Below are positions 1,507-42,000 of a stretch of DNA of 64,000 bases, piece by piece. Under the pieces are notes generated by a model. The model was given only the letters and a program-made list of their open reading frames with translations, ran no database searches and was not told where the DNA came from. A program made the translations under genes and the position numbers. Origin of the DNA: Nemertoderma westbladi. Its lineage: Eukaryota; Animalia; Xenacoelomorpha. The first letter of the stretch is position 1. Each line of letters begins with the position of its first letter. The DNA is taken from NCBI GenBank assembly GCA_032718475.1, contig JAUCBJ010007943.1, positions 61,046 through 125,045 on the forward strand, read 5' to 3'.

Positions 1507-2970
1507 TTAGGCGAGACTCAAAATATGTTCATGGTATGCTCTATGTGCTATTTTGGCTATTATACGACCCTCTTGTAGTCTCTGAAGGGAGGCGTCTTTC
1601 AACGTTAAGTTGTTGTTGGAAGTTCGTTTAATTTTTATCATTTCTAGAGATTTCAGTGATATAGTAGACCGAGTTGGGAGTGTCTTGCCATTGTTTCCAT
1701 GGTTCTTCCAGCGTTTCAATTTTTTGGGTATTATGGACGGGATGTGGTGTTTGGCAGATTGTAGCATTGTATGGTTAATCTTTTTAACCATCTCTTCTGG
1801 TAGCAATTTGTTTGTTGAGTACGAAACACCATCATCGTTAAGCAAGATTTTGCTAAAGCTCAGTAGCTCGTCATTAACAGATTTTCTATAGGCTTCTTTC
1901 TGTTCTGTTGTTGCTTCTTTAAATAGAAAGAAGCGAGGTCTAGTATTCCTCCACGCCGGTTTGTTTTGTAATTTTTGTTTGTGCTCCATTTGAGGAATAT
2001 TGAAGTTGCAGGAGACAGGTGTATGATCAGAAATGTTATCATCGTTTTGTTGGAAGATATGGCGTTCTTCTAAACAATTAGTAATGTTTTCTGAGGATAT
2101 TATATGATCTATTAGAGAGCTTCTTATTGTGATTCCTGTTCTTGATTTGAAAAAATAGGTTGCATTTCCGCCTGTTGTTTTGGAGTGTGTGCTTGAAAAG
2201 GCTTGTAATTTATAGGGGCGGACAATTTGTGTGTGAAAAATTGTTCCAAAAGTAGATCTTTTATTTTCTTCATTATGGTCTTCGTTGTGGGTTATATCAC
2301 CATTTATGTCTCCGGCTATGATTATTTCATTTCCATTTTGTATTGAATCATCAATTATTGATGTAAGCTTTCCGCATTCCTCTAAATAGTTGGTTCGTGA
2401 GTAGTTTGATTTATTATCAAAGGGCATATATGTTCCTATGATAGTGATATTGCAGTGGAAGTGATCATCAATTGTCATCGCAATCAGTCGGTCAGAGGTA
2501 GTGGTAACAGATGAACAGTATGTGCAGATATCATCTTTAATTAGGAAGGCTAGACCACCTTCTCCACGTACTCGTTTTTTATTTGACTTCATTCCTTCGG
2601 CTACAGAAAAGGTATAACAGGTGTAGCCGGCTGGTAGGTTTTTTTTGTTAAAGTTGAACTGAGCTTCTCTACAGCTGAGCCAGTGCTCTTGTAGTACTTG
2701 TAGTACCAGAATATGTGGGTCTTCATTTTGTAGGAGGGAGTAAATGTACTTTTTATTTCTTGTGTAGCCTTGGCAGTTAAATGTTATGATGTTCAAACCT
2801 AATGGGTTTGTATGAAAGTTTCTATCACGGTCAGAGTTTACTTTTGCTTCAGTATTACATGTGGTTGCCGGAGGTATAAAGATGCTTGCTTTGTTTGTTT
2901 TAAAAATACCGATTGTAGTACCTTGTGTGGGACCGTTCTTTCCGATAGTTCCCAGAGTTGATGAAACCAT
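1507..2970 (-). CDS. LINE ORF2 apurinic-type endonuclease domain, frameshifted relative to RT
   Basis: IITFNCQG, LQEHWL, GEGGLAFLI, GTYMP, IIAGDING, LIDHII, ISDHTPV motifs. Small VLQ duplication; the frame changes before RT. Confidence 0.92.
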   Translation of the reverse strand: MVSSTLGTIGKNGPTQGTTIGIFKTNKASIFIPPATTCNTEAKVNSDRDRNFHTNPLGLNIITFNCQGYTRNKKYIYSLLQNEDPHILVLQVLQEHWLSCREAQFNFNKKNLPAGYTCYTFSVAEGMKSNKKRVRGEGGLAFLIKDDICTYCSSVTTTSDRLIAMTIDDHFHCNITIIGTYMPFDNKSNYSRTNYLEECGKLTSIIDDSIQNGNEIIIAGDINGDITHNEDHNEENKRSTFGTIFHTQIVRPYKLQAFSSTHSKTTGGNATYFFKSRTGITIRSSLIDHIISSENITNCLEERHIFQQNDDNISDHTPVSCNFNIPQMEHKQKLQNKPAWRNTRPRFFLFKEATTEQKEAYRKSVNDELLSFSKILLNDDGVSYSTNKLLPEEMVKKINHTMLQSAKHHIPSIIPKKLKRWKNHGNNGKTLPTRSTISLKSLEMIKIKRTSNNNLTLKDASLQRLQEGRIIAKIAHRAYHEHILSLA

Positions 2971-3114
2971 TGTTCATTGTTTGTTGCTCATCGGAAGCAT
3001 TAATATTTATTTCTCGTTGGGTTCTGTTCCCATCTTTCCAGGCTGGTTGTTTGTCTCTGTGGTCATATTGGCTTCCATCGCAATAATAGTTCCGGGAGTT
3101 TTGTTTGTTGTTGT

Positions 3115-5975
3115 TCAGCAGGTTACCCCTGTGTCCCCTATAATTGTGTGATGTATATCTGTAGTTGTCTGTTGGTTTGTTTCGTGATTCTCTGTATCCA
3201 TAGTTGTCTGTTGGTTTCCACGATTGACATTGTGATTAGTTGCTCCAAGCATATGATTGTCTTTGGTAGTTTTTGTGGTTGGTTCCCTCATGATTATCTT
3301 TAAGGTCATGTTCGTTGTTACTATACGGGTTATGAGTTGTAGTTTGTCGGTTTCTGTCTTGTCTATTTCTATGGTAATTGCATGTTGTTGGGTTGTCTCC
3401 AGGCCACATATGGTTGTTTATAAAGATGTGGTAGTCAGCTGCTTGCACTGTTATTATGGCTTCTTTGATTTCTCCTTTATTGCCTCTAACCCAAACGTGG
3501 ACCGGATATATTCCAGTTTGTTTGTAACAAAATTGAGAGAGGCTGACCGATCCTGTATTTTTTGGTAAACCTGACACTAGTATTGTTTGCACTTGTTCAT
3601 TATTTTTCAAGTCTGTTTTCTTTTTAGTTACTTCTGGGTTTGTAGTCGGAATGTGTTCTTTTTTATTGCTCTTCTCTATGTTTTGTAGGATTACATTTTG
3701 TCTCTCAAGTAGCATTGCTATTTTGGAATCGTGATCCAGATTACTGAATAAGTTGCTAATTGGTATTGCTGTTTCTTTTGTTGTTTGTTGTTTAGGGCTA
3801 GGCCTCCCATTTGAAAGATGTACATATGTCCAGGCATTTGGATTATATGTCACTTCCTCCAGCGTTCTTGGTCTGACTACAGTTGGTTTCGATTCTGAAA
3901 TGTGTCCATTGTAGACAAGGTTTGCAGTATCAATGTCGACTTCAAGAAGTTCCTTTTCTGGAGTTTCAATCTGATCCCATGTTTGAAAGGTATCATCACT
4001 TTCGGAGGCTGGGCAACTCGCCCCGTTGCTATCAGTCGGGGTCGGGGTGGGAGTAGAATTATCACTATCATAGTCATCTGAGATGCTTTGGGACTCATCC
4101 TGCGATTCATCGCTTTCTTGGATTGAGGTTTCAGTATTATTAATATTTGTCAGTTGGTTTTTCTGTTTGCGCTTCCGTTTTTTCTCCTTTTTTGTTCGCC
4201 TCTTTGCTGCTTTATTTTGTTGTTTTGTTCCGGATGCTACTGATTTCTGCAGGTCATTTATTTCTAGGGTCATATTTGTGATTGAGTTCTGTAGCAGGTG
4301 AATGGTTTCGATTGCAGCATTATGAGCTCCAGAAAGGGATTTCACCTCAAGCTGTAGATTTGCAACAAGGTCTGTCAGTTGAAGTATGCTGAAACAATCC
4401 ATTGTATCTAAATTTACACGCTTTTTAAACGATTGAGAGATGGTATTATTCTCTATAGCGAGAGCAAACTCAGCCACATCTGTGGATAATTCTTCCATGG
4501 AACGTCTATTGACCGCGGTTATACTAAGACTGGGATTATTTCCTAAAATGTAGAGTTTTATGTGGTCTAGCAGAATTTTTTGCAATCTATTTAGTGTTCC
4601 AGATACCAAGGGAATCAATGTCTTAATGAATATGTCTTTGGGGTTATTTATTAGTTTCTCAGCACGTATTATAGACATTATTTCTTCAGTTGTCGATGCA
4701 TTCATTAGTAGATTCAGGTTGTTCAAGTTAGGGTCTATTGAGAAGGTTGGTTCTTGTTGTGTTGCGGTTATTTCGATGCGACAGTCTTCTACAGATCTCT
4801 TGAACCATGCACGGATCTCTGGACTATTTTCATGGTCTTCTCTTACTGATGAAGATTTCTGAGCTAGGGCTAAGCCATAGAGACAAATGTATATCCCACA
4901 GTCATAACCGTTTTTTTGTCCCGGGTATTGTCTCGTGTTTTGCTTTGTGATCCATGGTGATTCTTGCAGATTATTAGGGTTTTTCACTTTATGTATGAGG
5001 TTGAATAAATTGGTTATTGTGGCAGCAATTGACGATGTTGGATTGTCGTCCATGGGATCTAGGGTATATACTGTACTATTTTTTTTGTTGGATCTGCTAC
5101 ATGAAGTGTGAAATGTTTATGTTCATCGTCGATGTCTGGTATGAGTATGATTGAGTTTTGCTGAGTCGTTGGATCCCAGGAACTTGTGATATGTCTAAGG
5201 GCAGCTGAAATATCCCACTCCTTTTGGTGTAGCTTTTTACTTAATTCAATGGGGATGGTTATTGTGTGTGAAAACTGTATCTCCAATATTCCAAAGAAAT
5301 ATTCTATTATATGGTCACTGATATATAATTCTTTATCCCCTCTAGTTGTGATTGTTTTCTCTCGTGAAGTAGGATCAGGTATTTTTATTAGGTGTATTTC
5401 TCTAGGTAGGGGGGGGATTAGGGTTCTAGGATTGGTTCTCTTTGGTTTTGTTATGGCTTTGACGATTTCAGCTGTTGGCGCATTCTGCGTTGATGATAGG
5501 TTTTTTGAAGAATCGGCAAAAAAGCCCATTGACTCCTCTATTTCAGATATGCTAATGTCGTTTAGAGTATCGCTGGTGGTAGAGAAGGTTACATTGATTT
5601 TGTTACTGTGTGTGTTGGATAAATTCTTTTTTTTTGACTTCTCTTTTGGTTCCAAAGTTGAGGTGTTTTGTTTTGTATGTTCATGTTTTTTTGGAGCGTT
5701 GGTTGATGACTTTAATTTTTTTTTTTTGTTGTATTTATACTGGTAGTGTCAGTTTGTGTGTTTATGGGGGGCATACTCGAACCCATCAGTCTGTTGTGAC
5801 CCGTATTTTCCTCCATTGCGAGAGAGTCAGGTTCGGTTTCTTCATTTGGCGTCATCTGATTCAGAGGGTCAGACATGTGACTGTCAGGTGGGGTAGGCGA
5901 AGGGCTGCCTCCAGCCAGGCGCTGGTGCGGGAGTGGTTGGGGTTCGTGTTTTGGTGAGTGCTGTACTGGCGCCAT
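3115..5975 (-). pseudogene. LINE ORF1 (Ulp1/C48 protease + coiled coil + RRM-like domain) broken by frameshifts
   Basis: Pieces 5712-6002, 5059-5655, 3236-5053 and 3115-3309. Protease motifs HFTLHVAD...QY/LDPM...QKNGYDCGIYIC. Heptad region LTDLVANLQLEVKSL. RRM-like TILVSGLP...IITV...MWPG. Breaks at the T-run near 5720 and at ~5060. Confidence 0.8.
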
Positions 5976-6648
5976 GTCGTCAGGCCGTGATGCGCAGTTC
6001 ACACAGTTATCGCGCCGCTCGCGGTCCGGTATATACTCCTTTCCGCTATGCAGGCAGTTTGCAGTCCGCAGTCTGTTTGGCGGATGGGTTTAGGCAGTCT
6101 GTATGTGTGTCTTTCACACACTATTATATACAGGATAAATTCCCCAACTTCCTCTAAGTCACAATTATTTTAGTTAAAAGTTTACTGTTATATTTATACT
6201 CAATAGTTTCTTTTAGAGAAGGCCACAAAATGTATAAATGTTTTGAGTCGGCATTATGTTCTAGTGAATAATTATAATTATGTTCTGAAAATAATATAAA
6301 TTTGGTGGGCAATATAACATAAATTAACATCATTATACTAGGCCTATATCATATTGAGGTTCCTATTTTTATAAATCTTATTATCATTAATCTTATTAAT
6401 CTTATTATAAATCAAATGTTATATTTTATGAGTTGGTTGGCAACAGCGGTATTCCTATCCAATATATCTATTTTTTAGCTATTCATACTTAAACTAAATG
6501 TTCCAGAACATCGTGTATTTATTAAATAGAATAAATGGCCTTCAGCGAAGGAGAGTTCTTGCAATCTTTGAACGCCTATATTTCAGCTGTTTCTCAACGA
6601 AATTCAGATAATGTTACATATTTCTAATCCTTGCAAGGCAAGCTTTCT

Positions 6649-7833
6649 TGTTCGCGCTTTTGAAGACCTTTAGCAGTTTAACCTGCCAAAATTTATATGT
6701 CTTTTAGTTAATTAACACACCTTTAGCATACGACAATATTTTATGCTAATAAACAAAACATTAGCCGAAGCCAGCCCATGCGCGATCATTCACCCGATGG
6801 ATCTACACCCGGGAGGCTGAATTCGGATGCTTAGATTTTATTATTGCAGTGTAAGGTTGCAGTGTAAGCCTACTGTATTATTCGATTGATCGCTAATATG
6901 TAATTTCTGACAGATATTATTAACTTTCGGGAAATATTAACAGTTCCTTTAGGACGTGGCGCTCTATCTATTTAAACAGAGCTAGGACTTATACTAAACG
7001 CAACGATAAGGCTTATGATTAAAGTATAAGTCGCATTCTTTAGGAAATGCTTTGTTACCAGTCACATCACACTCACAATCATGCACACTATTCTGCCGAC
7101 CGTCAGTATATTTGATCACACATAAAGAGATCAGTAATTGACTCATGTAGGGTCTGCTAAATAACATTAGATTTAATACACACCACATTAATATAAATCG
7201 CAATTGTTATGTATAGCCGGTCTCTCTAACCTGTAGTGTATCAAGAAAATTGGGAAATTTGGGGGATTTATCCGTATTATCCAAAGAGCAATATTTCCAT
7301 CAACAAATAGGTACAATTAATAACTGACGGTAAATAACAGTACAAACAATATGATTAGTGCAGTTAAATTAAGTGAGGTAACACCGCCGGTAACAGTTAT
7401 ACTTTCTATAATCTAAGCAGTTTTTGCTAGAGTTGTTCCAAAAGCCGGTGTTATGGCGAAAAATGGGAACACAACAACAGAAACATGTGACTACTGCTCT
7501 ATACGAAGATACCAACTCCCTTATTCCACGAAGCTCCCGTTCAACACAGAGGATGAGCATAGAGATAGGAAATTCAGTTCAGTAGCGCTGGGATAGGTCG
7601 AAATCAACGCCTACGCAAATTCTATTGGCCGACACGAACAGCAAGGCTAAGGCAACCTCTCTAAGCTAGTTGGCCGATTAAACTGAGCCCAGATATCTCC
7701 GTACAGCACATCAGCCAATAAGCTGGTAGCTTGCACTATTTTAGTTATAAATCCCTTTGAGAGTATTCTAGCGACTGGGGGGGAACTGGCCAGCAAAGGC
7801 AAACGTATCAGTTATCCCACAAAAGCTTTTACA
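6649..7833 (-). repeat. 3' LTR
   Basis: Matches 16881-18065 at offset 10232. I found only two differences (6731/16963 and 7586/17818), both C/T at CpG. Confidence 0.96.
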
Positions 7834-7841
7834 CCGCTCCC
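7834..7841 (-). other. Polypurine tract (GGGAGCGG)
   Basis: Short purine-rich run directly abutting the 3' LTR on the minus strand. Confidence 0.65.
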
Positions 7842-7911: not shown

Positions 7912-9234
7912 TTAGTCTTTCTTGCGCGGACGGCGTTTACGCAGTTTTTTAAAGCTAGCAAGAGTCCTTTTCTCTTTGGGGCGAGCCACTTTACGAGGAG
8001 GGCTATAACTCCTGGGTGAAGGGTGCAATATGATTGCATCAGAAGGTATGGGATTGCGATCGGTATATCCGCCGGTCGAAGTACCGGGTTGATTGACATC
8101 AACGTCCGGGGAGAGGGGTCTAACGGCTTTGAGAGCTCGTTTCAAGACAGCCGCTCTTACGGGTCCTTTACGAGTGGTCTGAACGAGGGCCGTGGGTGGA
8201 CCATAGGCAGTTAGAAACTTCCTTGGTTTAATGGTTCTTTCCAACTCGCGTTCGCGGGCTCGGTATTCGTAAGGCCGTCGATATACTTCCTGTAACTCAG
8301 GGTGTGAGTTAACAAACAATTCTCCATAGTCCGGATCCTGACGGATATGATTGATTAAGTTATAGGAATGAAGGTCGCTAGGATTAACACTCCTGAGAAA
8401 TTTGCGTACGAATTTGGTTGAAATACATTCTCCGACGCGCTTCAGTAGCTCGTAACTTGATATGCGTGATTTCTGTTCAACCGAAGCGAATAGATAAGGA
8501 TGTAACGCATAAACTCCTTCGTAAGCGCGTCCGGGATAATAGCGATGGCGCGAATCACAATATAAATCAGTGTTCGCTTCCCAAGCTCTGATGTAACGTA
8601 GTGTGATCATTTCATCTACGCTTTCCAAATCGTGATTAAAAGGGCAATCGAAACTGGCATGTCCCTTTAGTTGACAATGGTGACATTGAGTCATAAATTG
8701 AGGGCAAACCGCAAAAATGTGCAAATTATTAAATCTGCAATACGCGCAATAAATTTCCATCGCCGGTTGTTCGTGGAAATAGGAACAGCGGACGTTTGTG
8801 TCCATGGGCGTAACATGGTCTCTCGATGCGCATAACCGACAACGTTGCCGAGAAACATAGTTGGCATGGCGATAATCGTACTCAGTGAGACACTGTGGAC
8901 CTTGATACCATTCTAGGATGTAATCGTTGTCGCTGTTCCGGGCGCGATAGGCTGAATCTCCTCAGATTCTAGGCATATTGGTTCATCTTCCCAGTCTATT
9001 ACGAATTAAGAAGTCCATATACGTACCATTACGATGCGTATAGCGAGCGGTTAATTTTCGATAGTCCAATTCACGCGTAAGTTGCTCTTGGGACATCGGC
9101 GGTTCGATATAATGACCATCGTCCTCCGTAATAGTCGGATCGGCTTCACCGCGTATCAAGCTATCCACAAACGCTTGTAAAGGTAGAGTATATCACTCTC
9201 TAATACGAAGGTCATCTTCTATCAATTCCGTCAT
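7912..9234 (-). CDS. Accessory Cys/His zinc-knuckle ORF in the env position, with three in-frame TGA codons (open part 7912-8805, 297 aa)
   Basis: One frame from ATG 9234 to stop 7912 with TGA at 9193-95, 8983-85 and 8962-64. Motifs CRLCASRDH, CAYCRFNNLHIFAVC and CHHCQLKGHASFDC; basic tail KKLRKRRPRKKD. Confidence 0.7.
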
Positions 9235-10855: not shown

Positions 10856-13800
10856 TTATGTTATGGAGTCCCTAGATATTTGTCGGATTAGGGAAGTGGT
10901 CGTAGGAAGAGTATCTTGCCTTCCATAGTTTCCGGACAGTTTTTGGTCTCTTTCCAGTAAACATAAACGACCAGCTGGGTGATTGGGTTGTCGTGTTACT
11001 TTCTCCGCTCCCTTGGCCTGTCTAATCTCAGCCGGGTTAAGGTGGGGAGGCCATTCATCTTCTTCTTTACTTAGGGAGTCGGGTCCACCTAACCAGCCGG
11101 GAGTATCTATCCGTTCTTGAGGAGTCGCTCCTCTGGAAGCGATGTCGGCTAGATTAATCATCTCGGGGAGATGTCTCCATTGATCTTCATTGGAGTTAAT
11201 ATCGTCATTATCTGAGGAGTATGGTGTTCCCTCAGTTAGTTCGTCCACTTCACTGCTCTCCACTTCCCAACCATTTATCTGGCATATTCTTTCTGGTGGT
11301 AGTCTCTCTTCGAGAGTTCTGCGGGAAGGGCCAGTAAAGTACCAACCTACTCTAGTTCTTACCGCATAGGTTTGTAGTGGCTGCGGTTGAGCAGGTCGTT
11401 TTTCCAATGTCTCGAGCGCCTCGTGCGCGTTTTGGCCGATAAGTATTTGCACTCCAGGATAATCCGTCTGGAATCGAGGTATTTTAAGTTGTTGGATGCT
11501 CTTGTCCTCGTTCCAGTTATAAGGCTCTACTTGGGTATTAGCGAAGTTCTTTATAGCTACCATTTTTACTGACCTTATACTTTGTTCTCCTAATTTATCC
11601 TGTGGGGTGGACAACGCACCTACATAGTAATCTGCCGTTATGGTAGATTTCCAAACCTGTATAACTCCTGACATATTCAACTTAGTTCGGAATTTGGGTT
11701 GTCCAGCAAAGATGTCTTCGGCTAGTTCTTGATCGATGAATGTTCCTGTACTGCCGGAGTCAAGGAGGGCATTCACTATGTAACTTTTGTTAGGACCCTG
11801 AACTCTTACCTGCACTACAGGAAATTCTCTGATTCCTACGTTGGAAGTTGAAGGTTTCCAGGATGGTTGTCTGTCAAAGTTAGTTGGGGAGAACTCATTG
11901 TCGGTGTCCTTTTCGTAAGTAAGTGCTCGATACACTGCGGTATTTATTAGGTAACAGGATTCGTTGGCGTCGGAGAATTCGTCCGTATAGAATCCTTCCC
12001 ACTCAGAACTTTGGTCAGTGTCGTTCACATCACTGAATTGGACATGTGATTTGGGCTCACTTACCTGACTCGGGCTGTTTCGTTCGAATTCACTTTGTAA
12101 CAAGATGTGATGTTTCGCACCGCACTTTGCACACTTTATGTCGGAGTAACAGGTTCGCCGCTGGTGTCCGCGTCTGAGGCAATTATAGCATAACCGCTTG
12201 TCCCACACAACTGTACGTCTGTCTACAAGGGATTTCTTTAGGAATTCCGCACACGCACTCAAACGGTGGGGCCCGTCGCACAGCGCACAGTTGGGTTTAA
12301 TGTTACTCACCTTATTTTGGGTGACGTTATGCACTCTAGTTCTTTCTTCGGGCTTTCTTCCGTGTACTCTGTTAGGAAACTGAAGAGGAGTCTTAGCAAC
12401 CTGTTCTCTCCTGTCATGGGTTCGAGCTTTAGATTTACTTACGTCCTTTGAGGTCTTGTTAACATAGTAAAATTTCTCGGTGTCTTTCCCGCTGTCTTCT
12501 TCTTGAGAAGCTTGGCTTTCGCCGTCATCAGTATAACACACCGGTGTTACTCTTCTCCTAGAAACGGGTTTCTCACTTACCTTATTTTCCGGTGTTTTCT
12601 CTCTGGATTGCTTTAGGAGTTGTAATTTCACCTCGCCATCCAAGAATGACACGAGATCAGCCATGGTAGGGTCTCGTTGTTGTTGTTCCATCGTATATAA
12701 CACCTTCTTGTCCCAGCGTGTACCTACTCCACCCTTGGGCAAAGTAGATGCTAAGGCTCCTACAACCATAGAATTCTGGTATTCATGAGACTTACCTAAC
12801 CAATCTAGTTGTCTACAGATCTCCTGAATCTCATCGGAAAACTCTATAATCCCGCTGCTAAGAAACTTTCGGGGGGCCATTAATTTCGCATATAAATACC
12901 TAGCTATGTTATTCCTATTACCATACCTGATGTTTAGTGTATCCCAAACTTGTCTTAATCCATCTGGATGTCCAATAAATTTTAACGCCATTGACTTGGG
13001 AGGTCCTTCCAAGCACTCGATGAGGAATCTAAGTTTCTCTCCGTTGGATAACACAGAGTTCTGTATGTTATCTTTATAATATTCATTAAAAGGTAACCAT
13101 TTCATCTCATCTCCATTGAACTTGACTATCTCTCCAACTTTTACCGCTTGACGGGCTTCGGTTCTAGCCATTTGACGCGTAAAACTTTCTTGGGCCATCG
13201 TGTTATTGAATATCGAGTTATCGGTATATAAATTTCTCGGATTATTATCAGGTCTATTGGGAATGTCATTAACAACAGGCGTATAATCACCCTTAATAGG
13301 GTTTGCTATAGGAGTTTCTACTTCACTAGCAGTATAGATGCGTGTAGGCTCCACACCTTGCGCATGTAATACTTCAGACCTAACAGGCTGACACACTGTT
13401 ACAGGGGTTATTGGTATTCCCTTTTGTAGGTTGACTAATTTGTCGCATTCTAGTGCGATACTTTGCTGCACTTTTTGCAACTCTAACCTACTTTCCCTTA
13501 CTGTTCCCTTGAGCTGCTGAACAGTCTCTTCCATTTCCCGGACTTGCTGAGAGGAGCACAAACAGTGTTCCCTCAGCTGCTCGAGCAGGAGACCCATCTC
13601 CCGTCGTCCCTCAGCTACCCACTCAACCGCCGAAGCGGGAGTCGCCAACGTAGTAGCGGGCGAGCGAGAGACGACGGGCGATAAATTCTTGATCTCTCGC
13701 TCGGCGTCCAGGACGGGTTCGGACTCGGGAACAGTCCTACTGGGCACAGGTAGTTTAGTACTGTACAAAGGGAATTTATAGGCAGTTTCTGGGAGCACAG

Positions 13801-14722
13801 GTGTCTCTATCACCGAAGGGGTGATTTCAAGAACAGGCCTAATTATTTCAGGCTCATCTACTACAGTAGGGAGTCTTTCTACTGTAATAATTTGGTCTGT
13901 GGGTTCTGTACTACCTAAGTCTGTGCTAGCTAGTTGCCTTCTCCCAGCTGGGGGCAGATTAGGCAATTTCTGACGGTGAGGCATTCTTCTACGTCTGTTG
14001 GAACGAGATCTATTTCCTCCGCCTTCAGGATCAGTGGTATCGCCTTCATCAGGTGACGTAACGCTTGCGTCCTTCTTCTGAGGTTTCTCTGCCGTCGCTT
14101 CGCCTTCCACTTGAGAAAAGACGGCGTCTGTTGATTCTCCTTGGGTCATGTGCTCGGTTAGCAGAGCTTTCCATTGAGTCGCTGCTTGGACTTTAAGACT
14201 CACACGCCAGAACAAAGTCTTTACGGCGACCCGCAACGACGTATCTTGGCTTATCCTTGAGACTTTCTCATAGGCTGAAAGAATTAGTCTGATCCACAGA
14301 ACTCGTTCGCGAACTTGATAAAGCAGCTCTTCCTGCTCCCGAGGTCCGTAAGGCCGCTGAAACAGCTGCTCCTCCAATCGCCGCAGAGAACTGAAGAATC
14401 TCTGTGCATATTCTGCTACCGACCCCTTCCACATAGCCGAATCCCTAGTGTTCCATACCACTCCCATCCTGTATAAGTCCTCCCAGCCAGCTTTCGATAA
14501 GTTAAACGGGAGTCCGGGTCCGGGGAAATTCCATTGCGTCTCGACAATAGACTTCAGTTCCTCCTTCGTGTATCCCGCATAACTATCCTTGGTCGATCGC
14601 TCACTTTTCGCCCAATCCATCTGGTGCTCCTCCACCGCAATCAATACCCTTTTGAGTACGGCTACAGGAAGGATGAGAAGGGGATCCGAACTATCTGACA
14701 GTGCCCGTTTTGTGTCAGACAT
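10856..14722 (-). CDS. BEL/Pao Gag-aspartic protease polyprotein with RT and integrase deleted in frame (1288 aa)
   Basis: DUF1759-like KFNGDEMKWLPF...EKLRFLIECLEG; three knuckles CALCDGPHRLSAC, CYNCLRRGHQRRTC, CAKCGAKH; protease ALLDSGSTGTFI...ILIGQN...RTRVGW; RNase H tail QWRHLPEMINLADIASRG..WLGGP. No YVDD-type RT or DDE integrase motifs. Confidence 0.93.
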   Translation of the reverse strand: MSDTKRALSDSSDPLLILPVAVLKRVLIAVEEHQMDWAKSERSTKDSYAGYTKEELKSIVETQWNFPGPGLPFNLSKAGWEDLYRMGVVWNTRDSAMWKGSVAEYAQRFFSSLRRLEEQLFQRPYGPREQEELLYQVRERVLWIRLILSAYEKVSRISQDTSLRVAVKTLFWRVSLKVQAATQWKALLTEHMTQGESTDAVFSQVEGEATAEKPQKKDASVTSPDEGDTTDPEGGGNRSRSNRRRRMPHRQKLPNLPPAGRRQLASTDLGSTEPTDQIITVERLPTVVDEPEIIRPVLEITPSVIETPVLPETAYKFPLYSTKLPVPSRTVPESEPVLDAEREIKNLSPVVSRSPATTLATPASAVEWVAEGRREMGLLLEQLREHCLCSSQQVREMEETVQQLKGTVRESRLELQKVQQSIALECDKLVNLQKGIPITPVTVCQPVRSEVLHAQGVEPTRIYTASEVETPIANPIKGDYTPVVNDIPNRPDNNPRNLYTDNSIFNNTMAQESFTRQMARTEARQAVKVGEIVKFNGDEMKWLPFNEYYKDNIQNSVLSNGEKLRFLIECLEGPPKSMALKFIGHPDGLRQVWDTLNIRYGNRNNIARYLYAKLMAPRKFLSSGIIEFSDEIQEICRQLDWLGKSHEYQNSMVVGALASTLPKGGVGTRWDKKVLYTMEQQQRDPTMADLVSFLDGEVKLQLLKQSREKTPENKVSEKPVSRRRVTPVCYTDDGESQASQEEDSGKDTEKFYYVNKTSKDVSKSKARTHDRREQVAKTPLQFPNRVHGRKPEERTRVHNVTQNKVSNIKPNCALCDGPHRLSACAEFLKKSLVDRRTVVWDKRLCYNCLRRGHQRRTCYSDIKCAKCGAKHHILLQSEFERNSPSQVSEPKSHVQFSDVNDTDQSSEWEGFYTDEFSDANESCYLINTAVYRALTYEKDTDNEFSPTNFDRQPSWKPSTSNVGIREFPVVQVRVQGPNKSYIVNALLDSGSTGTFIDQELAEDIFAGQPKFRTKLNMSGVIQVWKSTITADYYVGALSTPQDKLGEQSIRSVKMVAIKNFANTQVEPYNWNEDKSIQQLKIPRFQTDYPGVQILIGQNAHEALETLEKRPAQPQPLQTYAVRTRVGWYFTGPSRRTLEERLPPERICQINGWEVESSEVDELTEGTPYSSDNDDINSNEDQWRHLPEMINLADIASRGATPQERIDTPGWLGGPDSLSKEEDEWPPHLNPAEIRQAKGAEKVTRQPNHPAGRLCLLERDQKLSGNYGRQDTLPTTTSLIRQISRDSIT

Positions 14723-16054
14723 GTTTGATTGTACAGTTGAATGCCTACTGCTATATTACAGTCAAAGCAAGTCTAGTAATTCAGTATCACTGTTAGCCTA
14801 GTACCGGTAATTAATTACAATATATTAGAATACCGGTATACACTTATAGTATATATAAGTATTGTAAACTAGGTTTGTCACAGAGTACCGGTATATAATT
14901 TTAGCACAAATATATATAAATATATAATAGGCCTATCGTGAATACCGGTATACAGCTTACACTGATAGTATATATAAGTATAATTATGGACTAGAATTAA
15001 TTACAGAGTACCGGTATGATTTCAGCTCAAATTTATAGAAATAAATATAATAAGCCTATGGTAAGTACCGGTATGTCAATTATTTTAGAATAATTGAATT
15101 TCTGAATATTTTAGGGTTACTTGGTTACTTTAACTTACTTTATTACCGTTATTTAAGCAGTAGTCCAACTGATATTGAGACCTAGTTGTTGTATGGCAGG
15201 CCTACTATTTATAAATCGTTTGAGTTGATTTATAATATTTATATACCCGTTTAAAATGGGTTTTTGTCAATATTTGAAATAAATGTTATTATTTCTGGGG
15301 GAGTCACTACACAGAAGCTGAACGCCTCTCAGTGAAGTGCTATTTATTTGACACTCAAACTGATAATTCTAATTTACCTAAGTTACTTAATACTACAAAT
15401 TACTTACGATACGGGTGAGATTAATTCTCTAATTAAACACAACAAAATATTACGTACGAAATTTTTAGGGTAATTTTACAGGAAGTCTACAAACCAGCCT
15501 AACAAAGGGTTAGATTTCTGGTTATTACAACGGACAGGGTACTACGGTATTTGAAATAATAAGTAGTAGTAAATATACTGTACTGTCCAGATAGGAAAAT
15601 ACCACCGCCTGATGACCTATAACCGTATCGCTATAGGTACTACGTTATGTATCACGGATTGTTCCTACCCAGAAGTTAATAGAGCTAACGAATGTGCCTA
15701 TCAACCACTTTACAACACAAATCTACTGCCTACACACTAATTACTTCGGAAAGCACTGTACACTAAACCCTAAATTAGGTACAAGTACCGGTATAACAAA
15801 TAATCAGTAGTTAAATATACTTGAACAGTTAAAAGAACCACGGCATCTGCTGGAGTGACCGAAGCACAAAATCTCCAGTCTTTACCTACGCCGAGCAGCC
15901 CTGATGTAGTACCGGGGTTAGTTTAACTATAACGGTATGTATAACAAGCACAATTACTGTAGGAATAAACTTGGGGACATGAATGTTGCGAATAATCGCA
16001 TAAACTCTGAATAATAAATATTACGCTACCCGTACAGAATACTCAAACAAAATA

Positions 16055-16590
16055 AAAGCCAAACGCTGGCAGACTACCACCAAGCCTAAATAAACTACCG
16101 TACGTGTAGATTCTGAAATAGTTAGTTAGCATGCGTTCTAACACGGTAGTACGACTTATTCTTTAAGAGGGGATTGACCTTACCGCTATGGCTGCCCCAA
16201 CTTACTAATGGAGCTTTATCAGACAAACTCTACACACGCAGCAATCTCTTCAGACCTAATAATAGCTAGACAACAATCCAGCCTACAAAATATCTGAGTA
16301 ATAACTATTACGGTACCTGAACAGACCACACAAACAAACACAGGCCAAAACGCTGGCAGACTACGATCAAGCCTAAATAAACTACAGTATATGCAGATTC
16401 TGAAATAGTTAGTTAGTATGCGTTCTAACACGGTAGTACGACTTATTCTTTAAGAGGGGATTGACCTTGCAGAATATGGCTGCCCCAACTTACTAACGGC
16501 ACTTTATCAGACAAACTCTACACACGCCGTAATCTCTCCAAACTCAACAACAGTCAGACAGCAGCTCAGCCTACAATTATCTGAACAATC
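16055..16590. repeat. ~290-bp diverged tandem duplication in the retrotransposon 5' leader
   Basis: aaacgctggcagactac...ggctgccccaacttactaa...agacaaactctacacacgc occurs at ~16061 and ~16348. Confidence 0.85.
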
Positions 16591-16869
16591 TGAGCAGGGT
16601 CACACGCCTTCTGCTCAATATTAGCCTACTAGTAAATAAAACCGACAGAAATAAGTAAACTATACAAAAGAATGAGGGGTGATCAATCCCTATTCCCCTG
16701 GCAGCCTACAATATACAATAGATCACAATCGAAATAATACTAAATGTACTTGTACAGCAGTACCGGTACCGGTGATGACAGTTAGGCCTACTGACCTACA
16801 GAAGTACCGGTTCAGTTTTACCGGTCACTACGGTATTTTGCAACCTTATTGCTTACTGCAATAAGATCG

Positions 16870-16880
16870 ATAACTGTTAC
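16870..16880 (-). other. Atypical primer-binding site GTAACAGTTAT, complementary to LTR 17622-17632
   Basis: Directly abuts the 5' LTR; no TGG (tRNA-CCA complement); perfect 11-nt inverted match inside the LTR. Confidence 0.7.
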
Positions 16881-18065
16881 TGTTCGCGCTTTTGAAGACC
16901 TTTAGCAGTTTAACCTGCCAAAATTTATATGTCTTTTAGTTAATTAACACACCTTTAGCATATGACAATATTTTATGCTAATAAACAAAACATTAGCCGA
17001 AGCCAGCCCATGCGCGATCATTCACCCGATGGATCTACACCCGGGAGGCTGAATTCGGATGCTTAGATTTTATTATTGCAGTGTAAGGTTGCAGTGTAAG
17101 CCTACTGTATTATTCGATTGATCGCTAATATGTAATTTCTGACAGATATTATTAACTTTCGGGAAATATTAACAGTTCCTTTAGGACGTGGCGCTCTATC
17201 TATTTAAACAGAGCTAGGACTTATACTAAACGCAACGATAAGGCTTATGATTAAAGTATAAGTCGCATTCTTTAGGAAATGCTTTGTTACCAGTCACATC
17301 ACACTCACAATCATGCACACTATTCTGCCGACCGTCAGTATATTTGATCACACATAAAGAGATCAGTAATTGACTCATGTAGGGTCTGCTAAATAACATT
17401 AGATTTAATACACACCACATTAATATAAATCGCAATTGTTATGTATAGCCGGTCTCTCTAACCTGTAGTGTATCAAGAAAATTGGGAAATTTGGGGGATT
17501 TATCCGTATTATCCAAAGAGCAATATTTCCATCAACAAATAGGTACAATTAATAACTGACGGTAAATAACAGTACAAACAATATGATTAGTGCAGTTAAA
17601 TTAAGTGAGGTAACACCGCCGGTAACAGTTATACTTTCTATAATCTAAGCAGTTTTTGCTAGAGTTGTTCCAAAAGCCGGTGTTATGGCGAAAAATGGGA
17701 ACACAACAACAGAAACATGTGACTACTGCTCTATACGAAGATACCAACTCCCTTATTCCACGAAGCTCCCGTTCAACACAGAGGATGAGCATAGAGATAG
17801 GAAATTCAGTTCAGTAGTGCTGGGATAGGTCGAAATCAACGCCTACGCAAATTCTATTGGCCGACACGAACAGCAAGGCTAAGGCAACCTCTCTAAGCTA
17901 GTTGGCCGATTAAACTGAGCCCAGATATCTCCGTACAGCACATCAGCCAATAAGCTGGTAGCTTGCACTATTTTAGTTATAAATCCCTTTGAGAGTATTC
18001 TAGCGACTGGGGGGGAACTGGCCAGCAAAGGCAAACGTATCAGTTATCCCACAAAAGCTTTTACA
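16881..18065 (-). repeat. 5' LTR
   Basis: 1185-bp copy upstream of gag on the minus strand; AATAAA on the minus strand near 17070. Confidence 0.96.
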
Positions 18066-18399
18066 TTTCTCTTGACATGAAAAAAATTACGACTAATGTG
18101 AAAAATGGCCACGATACGGAGGATGTTACTGTATTTCGCAAAATACAGTTTTTTAAAACGCTTATTAAAAAAATTTAAAGGCGAAATCGAAAATTCCGGC
18201 TCTATGGGGTCAACGACGGTGAGTGGAACTATAGTTGTGTTTCAAATTTCAAGCAATATGATAAAGATTTGTAGAAAAATCTTAACCTTAAAACGGTTAA
18301 TTTATGTGTCTTATAATATCTGACAGGCCGTACAAAATATCAGTCAGTCTAAATAAAAAAAATATATATAATAGACTGATATATAAAATATCAGTCTAC

Positions 18400-20875: not shown

Positions 20876-23362
20876 TAGGGTGGTCCTTATTTTGAAAGGT
20901 TGGAATTTATCATCTCTGACCCCCTCAAATGTTTCCATTTCGTCAAAAAATATGACATGCGAAATTTTAAGCATGTACATCAAATATTAGAGGTAGCTCA
21001 AACACACTGAAGTTGAGTGTCTGGTCACCGATTGATCGTGCACGAAGAATATAATAGAGTTTGCTGATATGAAGGCTTCTTTTGTCGTACAGAGTTAATT
21101 TTAGGCTTATTTGAACCGCAGTCATCGATTTAGTGGGTGTAGTGTAGAGTAGATACCTTCAAAACAAGTGCTAAGCTAGTAGTTCTTGAGATATCACACA
21201 AAAGCTTAAGCCCGGCACAACTCATCAATCGATCATTCAATTGATTATGCCAAGGACATATTGAAATATTCGCATTTACATTTTGTAGGTCTACCTCCCT
21301 GCATCTTATTTCAGTTAATCTCGATTTTAGCATTGTCTAACCATTCAAAGCTATGTTTAATAAAAAAAAATTCATCACAACCCCATGGGAAATGCTTGCA
21401 CAAACATCACTAATTTGTGCCTAAGCGCCATTTGGTACGATATCAATAATTGGCCACAAAACTTAACTTTTGGTTAATTATATCTAGGAACTGTTCGTTT
21501 AATTTGATTTTTACTGATTTTAAGTGCAGAACCCAAAAATTGCATCTGATTTGTATTTTAAAATGATATGGTGCATGATATACAACACAACAATACTATA
21601 CTGTACTTCAAAGCATTTTAAGATACGGATTGATAGATGCAGAGATATGTACATCCAGTGACCAAAAGAGAACTAATATATGGGAAGAAGCTTTGCACAT
21701 ATGTATTATACATAATTAGGCAATGCTGATTCCAAATCTGATTTCAGATTTGCCTTACCACACACATCAAGTTTTTTCACAATTGCCACTTTGAGTTCAA
21801 AAACTTATTGCAAACGACTGTGATGAGTGGCGTAGATTCAAATAAGAATCAAATATGCTCAAAATCAATCCAAAACATTGAATGGAGCTTTGTTTATATG
21901 AATTATATTATATATTTTTAAACAATGCTGATTCCTAATCTGCTTTCATATTTGCCAAACTGCCATAGGATATCAAGTTGTTTTTTACAATTGCCAATTT
22001 AAGTTCAAATTACTTATCGCAAACAATTATTATGAGTGAAAGTAGATTCAATAAGAATAAAATACACCCCCAAATCAATCTACAACATATGCTATGGTAA
22101 ATCTGATAGCAGATTCACCATATAGATTGCATTGTTTAATATATAACAAAGCTCTTTTTCATGTTTTATATTGATTTGGAGCATATTTGATTATTATTGA
22201 ATCTACTTCACTCATCACAGTTGTTCGCGAGAAGTAATTTGAACTCAAATTGGCAATTGTGAAAAAACTTGATATGATATGGCAGCATGGCAAATCTGAA
22301 AGCAGATTTAGAATCAGCATTGTTTTCATTATATATAATTCATATAAACAAAGCTCCTTTCAATGTTTTAGATTGATTTTGAGCATATTTGATTCTCATT
22401 TGAATCTACATCACTCATCTTTGCGATAAGTTTTTTGAATTCAAATTGGCAATTGTGAGAAAACTTTATGGGGTAAGGCAAATCTGAAATCAGATTTGGA
22501 ATCAGCATTGTCTAATTTTGTATAATGCATATGTTCATAGCTTCTTCCCATATAGTACTCTTATGGTCGCTGGATGCACATATCTCTGTATCTATCAATC
22601 CTTTTAATATGCTTTGAAGTACAGTATGGTATTGTTGTATATCATGCACTATATCATTTTAAAATTCAAATCAGATGAGATTTTTGGATTCTGCACCTTA
22701 AAATCAGTCAAAATCAAATTAAACGAACAGTTCCTAGATATAATTAACCAAAAGTTAAGTTTTGTGGCCAATTATTGATATCGTACCAAATGGCGCTTAG
22801 ACACAAATGATGCTTGTGCAAGCATTTCCCATGGGGTTGTGATAAATTTTTTTTACTAAACATAGCTTTGAATGGTTAGACAATGCTAAAATCGAGATTA
22901 ACTGAAATAAGATGCAGGGAGGTAGACCTACAAAATGTTAATGCCAATATTTCAATACATCCTAGGTGCAATCAATTGAATGATCGATTGATGAGTTGTG
23001 CCGGGCTTAAGCTTTTCTGTGATATCTCAAGAACTACTAGCTTAGCACTTGTTTTGAAGATATCTACACCCACTAAATCGATGATTGCGGTTCAAATAAT
23101 AATATAATATAATAATAATAATATAAATTAACTCTGTACAACAAATAGAAGCCTTCATATCAGCAAACTCCATTATATTCTGCGCGCGCGATTAAATGGT
23201 GTCCAAACGCTCAACTTCAGGGTGTTTGAGCTACCTCTAAATATATATCATTTGTGCTCAAATTTTACTCAAGGTGTTTTTTTATCAGAAGAAAGGACTT
23301 GGGGGGTTCAGAGGAGAATTTCCACAACTTTTAAATTTTACATTGAAATAAGGACCACCCTA
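20876..23362. mobile_element. Non-autonomous hAT (hATm-like) foldback element with ~1.2-kb inverted arms
   Basis: Termini TAGGGTGGTCCTTATTT / AAATAAGGACCACCCTA; 8-bp TSD ATCTACAT (20868-75, 23363-70); mirrored ORFs 21130-21333(-) and 22883-23107(+). Confidence 0.92.
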
Positions 23363-36000: not shown

Positions 36001-39000
36001 GCTATCATATATAGGCCTTTTACAGTCACTCATAGGAAAGTACAACGTTATTCCCGTGCTCTGCCAGAAATGGCAGTTAGGCTTTTGAAGCCTTGTTAAG
36101 CAGACCATTTAACGGGTGTAAACGCTACGCCGACAACCGACAGCCAACAACCAACGCCGACAACCATTATTAAAGCTAATTATTGTTAATGAATTATTAA
36201 TTGAGGGAAAGGAACAGGTTACAGTGGAAGGTTATTCTAACCAAAACAACATTCTTAAAAATGCAGCTGCAATGCAGCATGCCGATCCTAGTAGTAGTCG
36301 GCGTAGCGTTTACACCCCCATTTAACCTATCTTTGATGCTGGTGCACGTTACATCTTTGGTAACTTTCGGTAACCTGTGTCTGTACTCACGGTATTATAG
36401 GCCTCTGTCGTTTCTAATGTTTGAATTTGGAACTGTCAGTCAGTCAGTTACATTATTTCTTACCGGTATAACCTGGTCTATAAGGGTCGTACCAGAAAAA
36501 TACCTATATCGTAATTGCCTATTCCACTCACCTTTACCAAAATCTGGTCCCGCCTACTGACCGCAGGAAATCCTGCCCTTGTCTGCTTTGCTTTATGCCT
36601 ATTATTGCAGTCTGCTGAACTGAACAGTTTAAGAACTACCGGTAGGCTACCGTTTCATTCTGTCTGATTGTTACATCACATCTCCATGATATATCGATAT
36701 ACAACGATGTTGTCTAGACGACTTATTCTCAAGCAGTTTCGCCCTGTTGGTAACCGTAGATTCTACTCGACAACGCAGCCCAGAAGTTCCGCCCATCCGA
36801 CAACCAAACTCTTTATAAACAACGAATTCCTGGAGTCCAAAACCACCAAATGGATCGACGTGCACAACCCCGCGACGAACGAGGTGGTGACCCGGGTCCC
36901 GGAATCCACCCAATCCGAGATGGAAGCTGCCACCAACGCAGCCGTCGAGGCCTTCAAGGACTGGTCCCAGACCACCGTACTGACACGTCAGCAGATAATG
37001 TTCGGATTCCAGGCCCTCATCAAAGAGAACATGAAGAGTCTAGCGGAACTTATAACGTTAGAGCAGGGTAAAACTCTAGTAGACGCGGAAGGGGATGTTG
37101 CTAGAGGATTGCAGGTTGTCGAGCATTGCTGCAGTGTTACAAGTCTCCAGCTAGGGGAATCTATGCAGGGGATCAGTCGAGATATGGACTGCCATACCTA
37201 CCGGTACCCGTTGGGGGTGGTTGCAGGGATCACCCCGTTCAACTTCCCCGCTATGATCCCGTTGTGGATGTTCCCGATGGCCGCCGTCTGCGGCAACACC
37301 GTGGTTATGAAGCCATCGGAGAGAGACCCGGGCGCCTGCATGCTATTGGTTGATTTGGCGCGTAGGGCGGGTTTACCTCCAGGGGTGGTTAACGTAATAC
37401 ACGGCGCCCACGCCGCGGTTGATTACATCTGCGACGCGCCGGCGATTCGCGCCATCTCGTTCGTGGGTTCGGACACGGCGGGCCGCTACATCTACGAGCG
37501 AGGCAGCCGCAACGGGAAGCGAGTTCAGTCTAATATGGGCGCCAAGAACCACGGGGTTGTGATGCCGGACGCGAACAAGGAGAGCACGTTGAACCAGTTG
37601 GTGGGGGCGGCGTTCGGGGCAGCGGGACAGCGGTGCATGGCCTTGAGTACGGCGATATTCGTCGGGGAGTCCAAGGATTGGATACCGGAGTTGGTGGAGC
37701 GCGCCAAGAAGCTGAAAGTGTCCGCGGGTAATGAACCGGACGCGGATCTGGGTCCGGTTATCTCGCCGGCTGCTAAGGAACGCGTGTGTGGGTTGGTGCA
37801 GACCGGGGTGGATGAGGGTGCCGATCTGTTGTTGGACGGGCGGGGTGTTACCGTGCCGGGGTACCCCGAGGGTAACTTCGTGGGTCCCACCGTGCTGAAT
37901 AAAGTGAAACCTGGGATGAAATGTTACAAAGAGGAGATATTCGGACCTGTGTTGGTTAGTTTGGAGGTTGACACATTGGACGAAGCTATCGATATAGTAA
38001 ACGCTAATCGTTATGGTAACGGGACCGCGATCTTTACCCGCAATGGTGCCACGGCTAGGAAGTACACCCACAGCGTGGATGTGGGTCAGGTAGGGGTTAA
38101 TGTGCCCATCCCGGTCCCATTGCCTATGTTCTCGTTCACGGGATCGAGGGATTCCTTCGTTGGGGATACCAACTTCTACGGTAAACAAGGTATCGCGTTC
38201 TACACCCAGACTAAAACCGCCATACAGGTGTGGAAGGAGGAGGACGCTACTGTAACGCGACCAGCCACTTCTATGCCCGTTATGAAGTAGTTCGTTAGTT
38301 ATATAGAATAGGAACTACCGAATTAAACGCCTCGCGTTTCTTCTCACTAATTCCATCGATCGTTGTCAGCTTGTCACCAACAGCGCGCTAACTGTAGTAG
38401 ATTATGTTGCTCGCCAATTAAGGAAATCTATGTTTAGAGTAGAAAGTTATTTATTAATTAATTATATTTGATTCTGTGTATAGTGTTGTAATTAACTGTT
38501 ATTTGTTTTGAAGTTTCCAATTGTCGCATTTTCTATTTGCGTCAGTTTTGTGCTACGATGTGATTGACCTTGCCCTTATTACATTGGAATTTGAGATTCA
38601 TTATAGTCATTGTTTTATTGTTTGATAATGACCCCCTCCCACCCCCACCCCGCTTCTTGGCTCATTGTACCATATGGTACTTTTTGTTGTTGTACTTTCT
38701 TGTTTGTTTCTTGGAAGTCAACATTTTGAAATTCTTACTGCACCAAAAAGCGAATAAGTAGAAAAAAAGTGTAAGATACATTTTGGGTGGACTATATTGA
38801 ATTGTAATATTTAAAAAAAAGTTATTTTTGACGCCCCTTAAGCAGCCAAATTTACATTTTTGACTTAAAATGCAACTCATTTGTTATGCTTTATTTTCAG
38901 AAGTTGTAACCTGTTTTTTTGGAATCAGCATGGCCGATTACGTGAAAAAATTCGAGCAGAATTTCAGGAAATCACCGCGCTATTTTTCAAAATAATTTTC

Positions 39001-42000
39001 AAATTAAAAAAAACGCACTGTTTTTTTTCGTAAAAAATGTTATAAGATGGACAATTTATTGCAAAAAACTGCTCGAATTTTATTATTGCGCACTCTAGTA
39101 GCTTTAATTTGATACCAAAAACTTACAAATTGGTTGATGAATGGCGGAGGAGTAGTGTTTTAAAAATGAAAAATACCATTACGTGATTATTGCCTTTAAA
39201 GTTTGAACCTTCCCGCGCAAAAATTGTCTGTTAATATGTGAGAATGTCTGTCAATAATATAGCAACACAAAACCATGCTAAGATTATTGCTATGGGGTTT
39301 TCGTGGTCGCTGATTTCATTTCTGAGGTCAGAGTTTAATGACACCAGGTTAATCTGTTTGTCTGTCTGTCGGTCTTTCTGACAACCGACAATCTGTCCGT
39401 CAAATATAAGAAAAGGGCACACCATCTAGCTAAAATTATAGTTCTAGGGGGTTTTCCTGGCCGCAGAATTCATTTCGAGTGTCAGATTTAATCATTTGAT
39501 GGCTTCCAAATTGTCTGTTTGGCTGTTGGTTATATTTTGACGGACAGACTGACTGGCATGCAGACAGAAACGACGAGGCAAAATTTGAATAATGACATAA
39601 GAAATGAAGTCACCGACCCCGAAAACCCATATAGGGAATTTTTTAGAAATATAGTGTGCTTTTTATTGACGGACAGACATACTGACAGACAGACCGACAT
39701 TAAAACGACAGACAGCCATATCTCGAGAAGTAAGACAGATTTGGCTAAACGGTTTTCATATTTGGAATCTTGATAAAAATCTGCTCTAGATGAAAAAAAA
39801 AATTTGAAAAAAAAATTGAAAACCAGTCCCCCCCCCCCCCCCCCCCCCCCCTTATTCTCCTTACTCCCCCTTATTTCTCCCTCCTCCTCCGTGGGTGAGC
39901 CAGGATTTTTATTTTTGATTTCATTCTTTAGCTACAAACGGTTAAAAACGGTGTCTCCGCCAATATTACACCAGTTACAGCGCAGTTATTTTTCAATCTT
40001 ATTATAGTGATTTGTTGATACTAGTAAAAAGCTGATTGGATCGTGCAAGGGTTCCAAATATGTAAAAATATTTGAATTTGGTTTAAATTTGGAAATAGCT
40101 GAGATATGGGCATTCGAATGTGGCATGTATTTGCTTAAGGCGTCCTTTATAACAATATACAGACAAACGGATAAAACCGATTTTGCCAGTACTGCCGTTG
40201 TTTGGCAATACACCCTATCTCAAAATTTTCAAAAAAAATTTTATTTGACCAATTGGGGTAACTTGACACGCTCTTTTCAATGAAACTAAGAAAAGTGGGG
40301 TGTTCCTTTCACGAAATCGGACTTTTTCAATCTTAAAACACCCCATGGCAGCATCTTAAATCAACAGCTGCGAGGCAAAACACCCCATAGCTAAATTCGA
40401 CCATATAGGGTGCTTTGCCTTGTTAACTCTGTCGACCAAATAACCCTATCCTTGAGTTAGGGTTTTTTGCCTTGCGCTTTACTTTTAAGCCAATCAATTA
40501 GTTAAGGAATTGACCAATCAGAAGTAATATCCTTTGTCATTTAATATTTATTTACACTACTTAAAGGTAACTCTGTCTGGCGGGTAATTAATTTTAGTTA
40601 TTTTAATTTGACCTGGCGCAAATTAATTTACCCTATCTAGTTATATTGATTTTTGTTCGGAATTTACTCTTTATTACAACCAACAATGTACTAACAGTCT
40701 TGTAAGTTTTAAGGGGAAATGGAGTTTGACAATAATGACGAGGAAGAGAATCTGGATACGTTTTTTGGATTTGTTATTATATCAGAAGGAGAAATAGGAA
40801 CTGGGACAGATGGAGTAGTTGGACGCCGGGCCTGGGATGGGTGATGTAGTGTTAGGTACTGGGGAAACGGAGGGTGAAGAAGATGGAGCTCTTGTTGGAA
40901 CTGGGGAAGGTGGAATGGTTGTTGGAACTGGGGAAGGTGGAATGGTTGCTGGAGCTAGGGGAGGTGGAATGGTTGCTGGAACTGGGGAAGGTGGAATGGT
41001 TGTTGGAACTGGGGAAGGTGGAATGGTTGTTGGAACTGGGGAAGGTGGAATGGTTGTTGAAACTGGGGAAGGTGGAATGGTTGCTTGAACTGGGGAAGGT
41101 GGAATGGTTGTTGGAACTGGGGAGTGGAATGGTTGCTGGAACTGGGGAAGGTGGAGTGGTTGTTGGAACTGGGGAAGGTGGAATGGTTGTTGGAACTGGG
41201 GAAGGTGGAGTGGTTGTTGGAACTGGGGATGGTGGAATGGTTGCTGGAACTGGGGAAGGTGGAATGGTTGTTGGAACTGGAGAAGGTGGAATGGTTGTTG
41301 GAACTGGGGAAGGTGGAGTGGTTGTTGGAACTGGGGAAGGTGGAATGGTTGTTGGAACTGGGGAAGGTGGAATGGTTGTTGGAACTGGGTTAGGTGGAAT
41401 GGTTGTTGAAACTGGGGAAGGTGGAATGGTTGCTTGAACTGGGGAAGGTGGAACGGTTGCTGGAACTGGGGAAGGTGGAATGATTGCTGGAACTGGGGAA
41501 GGTGGAGTGGTTGTTGGAACTGGGGAAGGTGGAATGGTTGTTGGAACTGGGGAAGGTGGAGTGGTTGTTGGAACTGGGGATGGTGGAATGGTTGCTGGAA
41601 CTGGGGAAGGTGGATGGTTGTTGGAACTGGGGAAGGTGAAATGATTGTTGGAACTGGGGAAGGTGGAATGGTTGTTGGAACTGGGGATGGTGGAATGGTT
41701 GTTGGAACTGGGGATGGTGGAATGGTTGTTGGAACTGGGGAAGGTGGAGTGGTTGTTGGAACTGGGGAAGGTGGAATGGTTGTTGGAACTGGGGAAGGTG
41801 GAGATGTGGTTGGAACGGGGGAAGGTGGAGTGGTTGTTGGAACTGGGGAAGGTGGAGATGGGGTTGGAACTGGGGGAGATGGAATTGTTGTTGGAACTGG
41901 GGAAGGTGGAATGGTTGTTGGAACTGGGGAAGGATGATATGTGTTTGGAACGATGGAAGGTGGAGTGGTTGTTGGAACTGGGGAAGGTGGAGATGTGGTT

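Follow-up and report, generated by a model that had tools for sequence, protein, structure and literature searches.

The window, by which we mean the whole 64,000-nt stretch of DNA analysed, carries an LTR element that spans 18065-6649 on the minus strand. Its 5' LTR (16881..18065, minus strand; 1185 bases, TG...CA) and its 3' LTR (6649..7833, minus strand; likewise 1185 bases) align free of gaps and differ at two positions only, 16963 and 17818 (2/1185). The 5-base target-site duplication AGAAA is present both upstream (18066..18070, minus strand) and downstream (6644..6648, minus strand), and a purine-rich tract, GGGAGCGG, lies immediately 5' of the 3' LTR as a candidate PPT (7834..7841, minus strand). 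Together, the two LTR differences, the AGAAA duplication and the purine-rich tract point to a recent insertion. Thousands of contigs with many variants align to the LTR in two DNA runs, and the family is thus abundant (high-copy). Adjoining the 3' end of the element are minus-strand ORFs (1507-5748) with a Ulp1-type protease match at 3236-5116 and an endonuclease domain at 1507-2973, which probably constitute a LINE-like element.

The element has a 2.1-kb leader, within which a two-copy tandem repeat with a 287-base unit occupies 16006..16589 (no strand assigned), and two ORFs. ORF1 (10859..14755, minus strand; 1299 aa stop to stop) encodes, in this order, a DUF1759 gag domain (E 1.7e-13), cysteine-histidine knuckles and an aspartic protease motif, DSGS, the latter two read from the translation, and, near its end, an RNase H remnant of about 50 aa. 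This remnant (11048..11197, minus strand) corresponds to the C-terminal part of a BEL/Pao RNase H and is 47% identical to a Pao-type polyprotein across 49 aa. The scanned ORFs of the element yielded no RT or integrase family, and both were also absent from the 20 best tblastn rows that reach the remnant part of ORF1, all of which were gag-protease or RNase H remnant. ORF2 (7912..8961, minus strand; 349 aa) follows the RNase H remnant, precedes the 3' LTR and combines cysteine/histidine clusters in its N-terminal half with a basic tail; searches against Pfam and NCBIfam returned no family for it, just weak zinc-knuckle look-alikes.

All hits of a first protein search with the element's protein (5/5) carried PF05380, the Pao family, together with PF03564, and PF05380 was found in 10/20 scanned hits of a second search (the first 11 and 9 long ones of 150). 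The searched sets held no close protein relative, the best reaching about 30% identity. The pol-bearing relatives are of Pao type and not Ty3/gypsy chromoviruses, which places the element outside the Tf1/sushi group. Judged by its sequence, the element is a non-autonomous BEL/Pao derivative, and the membership claimed for it in the first-pass annotation is supported by the DUF1759 domain, the PF05380-bearing relatives and the RNase H remnant. It resembles the Belpaoviridae in its 1.2-kb LTRs, DUF1759 gag, protease, Pao-type RNase H remnant and purine tract. For members of that family, whose replication is described as poorly understood, the ICTV profile gives an 18-nt tRNA-Arg/Gly site and a host tRNA as primer (PMC8742986). 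This 18-nt tRNA-type site, an ICTV criterion, is absent from the element, which we file as a BEL/Pao variant on protein evidence all the same.

What stands in the place of a tRNA site is an 11-base stretch, GTAACAGTTAT (16870..16880, minus strand), which follows the 5' LTR flush and lacks TGG; the nearest TGG 3' of the 5' LTR lies 341 bases downstream. Its exact complement, the putative self-primer ATAACTGTTAC, is located within the LTR at 17622..17632 (minus strand), 752 bases from the primer-binding position, and is followed by C. A second copy is present in the 3' LTR at 7390..7400 (minus strand), and beyond 17632-17622 and 7400-7390 the window holds no further complement of GTAACAGTTAT. 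The match is exactly 11 bases and ends there on both sides. A flush match of 11 arose in 13/20000 dinucleotide shuffles of the LTR (6.5e-4) and, with a spacer of 0-5 allowed, a match of 11 arose in 41/20000; among internal 11-mers, 4/9036 have a complement in the LTR, at three separate places including the primer site itself. Sequence comparison thus bears out the first-pass annotation as to the flush site, its exact LTR complement and the missing TGG, and the chance of 3e-4 that it gave for the match compares with 6.5e-4 from the shuffles. In our main reading, to which we give a probability of roughly three in four, the element's own RNA, and not a tRNA, likely serves as the primer of its minus-strand DNA synthesis; the shuffles and, as set out below, the insertion variants, the leader-LTR duplex and other BEL/Pao loci support such a self-priming signature in place of the tRNA site.

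A host RNA could also be the primer, either a tRNA half or another small RNA, the LTR match then being secondary. Half-tRNA priming is known in some Copia lineages, according to the accessible passages of PMC6317226, and by our own reading the 11-mer closes with seven letters that resemble an anticodon loop with GTT. Yet no tRNA-like match was found in 14700-18100 and no tRNA gene in the window, and a fixed host RNA leaves unexplained the matching change at the LTR site that is described below; we regard host-RNA priming as very unlikely. One Rfam match, with an E value of 0.97, was taken as chance.

The composition of the 11-mer calls for some caution. It is a near-palindrome, TAAC-N-GTTA, and the two sites are also 8/11 identical as direct repeats. 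The palindrome is built on CNGTTA, a motif enriched in the LTR (seven occurrences; 5.9 per kb versus 2.5 per kb in the flank), which lowers the weight of the 11-base match. This enrichment and the self-complementary core would be expected if both sites derived from a single near-palindromic motif for protein binding, TAACNGTTA, which in our view presumably resembles Myb or Ovo sites; the complementarity would then be a by-product and some other primer would be used. Against this, the full 9-base palindrome has a single occurrence in the LTR and another in the leader, and 21.9 kb of flank contain two; moreover, a protein motif leaves unexplained why a tRNA site is absent, why the 11-mer is flush with the LTR and why 13/37 related loci have non-palindromic complements (see below). 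The insertion variants, which disrupt the palindrome in complementary fashion at each of the two sites, also speak against a shared protein-binding motif, and we consider it improbable.

These variants came from DNA runs. A primer-site variant, GTAACAGTTTAT (sense strand), was present in contigs of 4/4 runs examined, and made up 22-63% of the depth in X3, X4 and X5; a second version of it appeared in the loose end of an X4 contig. Self-priming predicted a matching extra base at the LTR site before it was looked for. When contigs of the same runs were aligned to 17575-17685, one diverged X1 contig (depth 515) was found whose alignment stops at 17630 and whose loose end continues with the exact complementary extra base; what was read of this contig is the loose end beyond 17630. 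This LTR-site variant amounts to less than 1% of the summed depth and is listed for X1 only, and the two variants lie on separate contigs and are unphased. None of the contigs listed for X3, X4 and X5 had the LTR-site insertion; depth over 17640-17750 is about tenfold below that of U5, and diverged copies may be missing from the alignment there. In X3, high-depth contigs (about 7600) show no difference over 17580-17655, a single contig (depth 152) departs from the LTR at 17626, inside the 11-mer, and the rows listed contain no substitution in 17575-17685. Covariation of the primer site with its LTR complement, an expectation raised in the first-pass annotation, thus holds as far as a matching insertion at both sites, with unphased variants and a single contig on the LTR side.

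Two further features of these contigs were recorded. At 17608-17609 and 17626, several contigs share the downstream LTR and differ upstream, as related families or recombinants with a different U3 would. One X1 contig joins the LTR's 3' end to the plus strand of the LTR from 17622, that is, from the 11-mer, onward; it may have arisen by copying of a 5'-extended primer, by homology-driven insertion or as a chimera in the library, or may be a normal junction that was misaligned, and it was not counted as evidence.

The leader next to the primer site (16839..16869, minus strand) is predicted to form either a hairpin or, alternatively, two arms that pair with the LTR. The predicted 12-bp hairpin (16869-16841) has a stability of -13.2 kcal/mol, equalled by 5/9018 internal 29-mers. 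The arms 16864-16855 and 16848-16839 are complementary to an LTR segment at 17073..17093 (minus strand), with which they would form two perfect 10-bp helices (-24.6 kcal/mol); 20 bp were reached in 0/5000 shuffles and a single 10 in 181/5000. The segment lies within a 13-base tandem duplication of the LTR, through which both helices share a TTGCA core, so that they are not fully independent. A different version of the LTR, seen in loose ends of 24, 10 and 4 contigs in X1, X3 and X4, respectively, keeps a 14-base pairing with the first leader arm when aligned by hand. The LTR contains a single AATAAA (17069..17074, minus strand), which the same segment touches; it is a candidate poly(A) signal in which position 17070 differs in many copies. 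One may speculate that this poly(A) signal is masked by the leader-LTR duplex, in the 5' LTR alone, with the local hairpin as the competing fold. A second flanking duplex, between the LTR end 16889-16884 and a 6-base partner at 17012..17017 (minus strand), is a weak candidate at only 6 bp. Pairing of the sequence upstream of the 11-mer with the leader was equalled in 34/2000 shuffles, a weak hint.

In global folds, the 11-mer is predicted to pair with the primer site at 0.93-1.0 for an RNA ending at or before 16800, at about 0 when the RNA is folded to 16700 or 16500 and at 0.05 if the RNA starts at 17700; such folds cannot model pseudoknots, and the full arrangement proposed here is one. Competing partners of the 11-mer in these folds are 17293-17286, 17558-17552 and 16776-16762. 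The LTR contains TATA-like motifs at 17735 and 17642 and the initiator-like TCAGTT at 17918 and 17559; thus, two core-promoter-like motifs would place the transcript start upstream of the 11-mer and two (17642 and 17559) downstream of it. The competing partners and the downstream promoter-like motifs would both suit a pairing that is real and serves RNA structure (in dimerisation, in packaging or in the control of polyadenylation or translation), or a primer supplied by the 3' LTR copy of a second packaged RNA, and a near-palindrome could also pair between two RNAs. However, the element moved recently, as its 2/1185 LTR differences indicate, and did so with no other primer site, and priming from a 3' LTR copy would still be self-priming. 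We judge this alternative very unlikely.

Other BEL/Pao loci provided evidence on self-priming from outside the window. We fetched 79 metagenome loci with an alignment of 25 full-length relatives; the 39/79 with sequence upstream of gag were scanned, and two (L004 and L013) were dropped as duplicates, leaving 37, in which most LTR ends are inferred and not defined by two copies. The rules for donor, acceptor and spacer were set after cases had been seen by eye, and the shuffles were run under the same rules. Among the five loci with both LTR ends defined, a spliced complement was found in 2/2 without TGGTCC and in 0/3 with TGGTCC; we take these TGGTCC sites to be tRNA-like. In the former two, L015 (L015:55-73 with 6570/6646) and L020 (L020:2772-2787 with 2401/2550), complements of 15 and 12 bases, respectively, run across the GTAAG...AG junction of a predicted intron in the LTR, a result obtained in 0/200 shuffles for each. 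In the latter three (L018, L022 and L046), the TGGTCC site is present and no junction-spanning match was detected.

The open scan of the 37 loci gave a similar picture. Junction-spanning LTR complements of 10-15 bases were found in 13/37 loci versus 1.97 expected, and in 0/6 of the loci with TGGTCC. Contiguous complements were found in 7/37 versus 3.98 expected and are thus not clearly above chance. Apart from L015 and L020, post-LTR bases that pair only with the exon-exon junction of an LTR intron were seen in L028, L003, L005, L006, L012, L054, L055, L064 and L070. Ten of the 13 spliced complements end in AC and two in AT; the next base is C in 10, and in seven the inferred LTR end adjoins without a spacer. 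The 11-mer of the window likewise ends in AC (TAC), is followed by C and is flush with the LTR; a splice-assembled extension of it was looked for in the element and not found. Contiguous self-complements of 11-12 bases that end in AC are carried by L017 (L017:123-133/273-283), L026 (L026:96-107/284-295) and L001 (about 752-762/914-924). L005, with a spliced complement, and L017, with a contiguous one, are sister rows at 100/100, so that both forms occur within one branch.

In the pol tree, one strongly supported side holds the six TGGTCC loci and a single unlabelled row; the self-complementary loci are distributed over the remaining branches. The protein from the window, which offers only gag-protease and the remnant, forms a long branch that is provisionally placed beside the TGGTCC clade and not inside it (90/94, unstarred); this placement outside the self-complementary clades gives no support for nesting among them. 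Where the first-pass annotation had inferred an independent origin of self-priming in BEL/Pao from this one element, the signature itself is supported, but it is not special to the element and is spread over several BEL/Pao branches. The leader-LTR duplex has a narrower distribution: a duplex of at least 11 bases was found in just 2/13 related loci (three of them with coordinates off by a few bases), and is thus not general. A search with the leader pattern, the primer site being left free, gave 0 stretches in the metagenome contigs; one short locus came from the viral collection.

The related loci also bear on the transcript start. In L015 and L020, a TATA-like box was seen by eye some 140 bases 5' of the predicted splice donor, which would make the primer internal to the RNA there. 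By the same logic, a start exactly at 17632 is probably not required in the element, and an upstream start would be compatible with self-priming. We propose a model whereby the transcript would start at or upstream of 17632 and its segment 17632-17622 would anneal to 16880-16870 in a folded-back RNA, while pairing of the leader arms with 17093-17073 would produce a 'pretzel' like that of Tf1. If Tf1 is a guide, an autonomous relative might supply the RT whose RNase H then cuts after ...UAC, and the new 3' end might be extended into U5. Plus-strand synthesis would recopy the primer into the PBS, and the two sites would consequently be expected to change together.

A more general model is about evenly poised in our estimation. 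According to it, tRNA-independent self-priming would be the usual mode across much of the BEL/Pao tree; in many lineages, removal of an intron from the LTR by splicing would build a primer of 10-15 bases, and others, including this element, would carry it contiguously. The primer would be internal and freed by a cut after AC, and in this family of elements a leader-LTR switch would link priming with a masked 5' poly(A) signal. An internal primer, spliced in relatives, would extend beyond the Tf1 model and give exact, testable cut sites.

Several known systems are comparable. Self-priming is established for Tf1, in which the RNA folds back, is cut and is extended from the new end (passages of PMC7175516), and which requires duplexes beside the primer duplex in a 'pretzel' topology (excerpts of PMC10085805); in the sources seen in part, it has also been proposed for Tf1/sushi, Tcn1 and Copia TAR. 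With Tf1 and Tf2 of Schizosaccharomyces pombe, Tj1, Tosmo and the Tf1/sushi and Tcn1 groups of Ty3/gypsy, the element shares an 11-base perfect LTR complement directly after the 5' LTR, the lack of a tRNA site and an adjoining leader-LTR duplex, as far as the accessible text of PMC7175516, PMC10085805 and PMC4600332 describes them. Unlike these, it belongs to another superfamily, has 752 bases between the two sites, lacks its own RT and carries a putative primer that need not be the 5' end of the RNA. A resemblance of the 11-mer to the Tf1 primer was considered and dropped: in Tf1, ATAAC begins the PBS (passages of PMC11042837), whereas here it starts the putative primer, so the shared letters are no sign of homology. 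A text search of the literature found no paper with the motif.

For the plant Copia TAR elements (Houba and Osr-1), self-priming has been predicted from a complement of at least 10 bases within 0-5 bases of the LTR; the element has a complement of this kind, and in the available parts of PMC6317226 the Copia case is a prediction only. The fungal GalEa elements, with their Conserved Hairpin Site, are similar in having no tRNA site and a palindromic stretch and hairpin directly after the 5' LTR, but no LTR complement was found there (accessible portions of PMC5445492), whereas the element has an exact one. Bivalve TRIMs are described, in the partial source at hand, as having neither a tRNA site nor an LTR complement. 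In the literature searched, including passages of PMC554778, PMC3601003, PMC5443660, PMC3286476, PMC4580426 and PMC12440569, self-priming was not reported for BEL/Pao; such a report might exist in the primary Tf1 papers, in subscription journals, in supplements or in Repbase/GyDB entries. Since self-priming has already been predicted for Copia TAR (in the passages of PMC6317226), BEL/Pao would be the third superfamily and not the second. If our main reading is true, self-priming arose, or was retained, in each of the three LTR superfamilies. Control via tRNAs and their fragments would not reach such elements, and annotation tools that look for a tRNA site would miss or misannotate them.

Elsewhere in the window, an uninterrupted 540-aa ORF at 36668-38290 scores above the NCBIfam cut-off for methylmalonate-semialdehyde dehydrogenase; its GC content of about 51%, against 36% in the surroundings, would suit an intronless gene, a retrocopy or a transfer. 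At 20987-23240 lies a large fold-back element whose inverted arms are nested and which contains subrepeats of 196-202 bases, and satellite arrays (27, 35 and 42/32/74 bases), together with an RT fragment, are found at 40743-42150, 44559-45190, 48593-59000 and 59759-61333.
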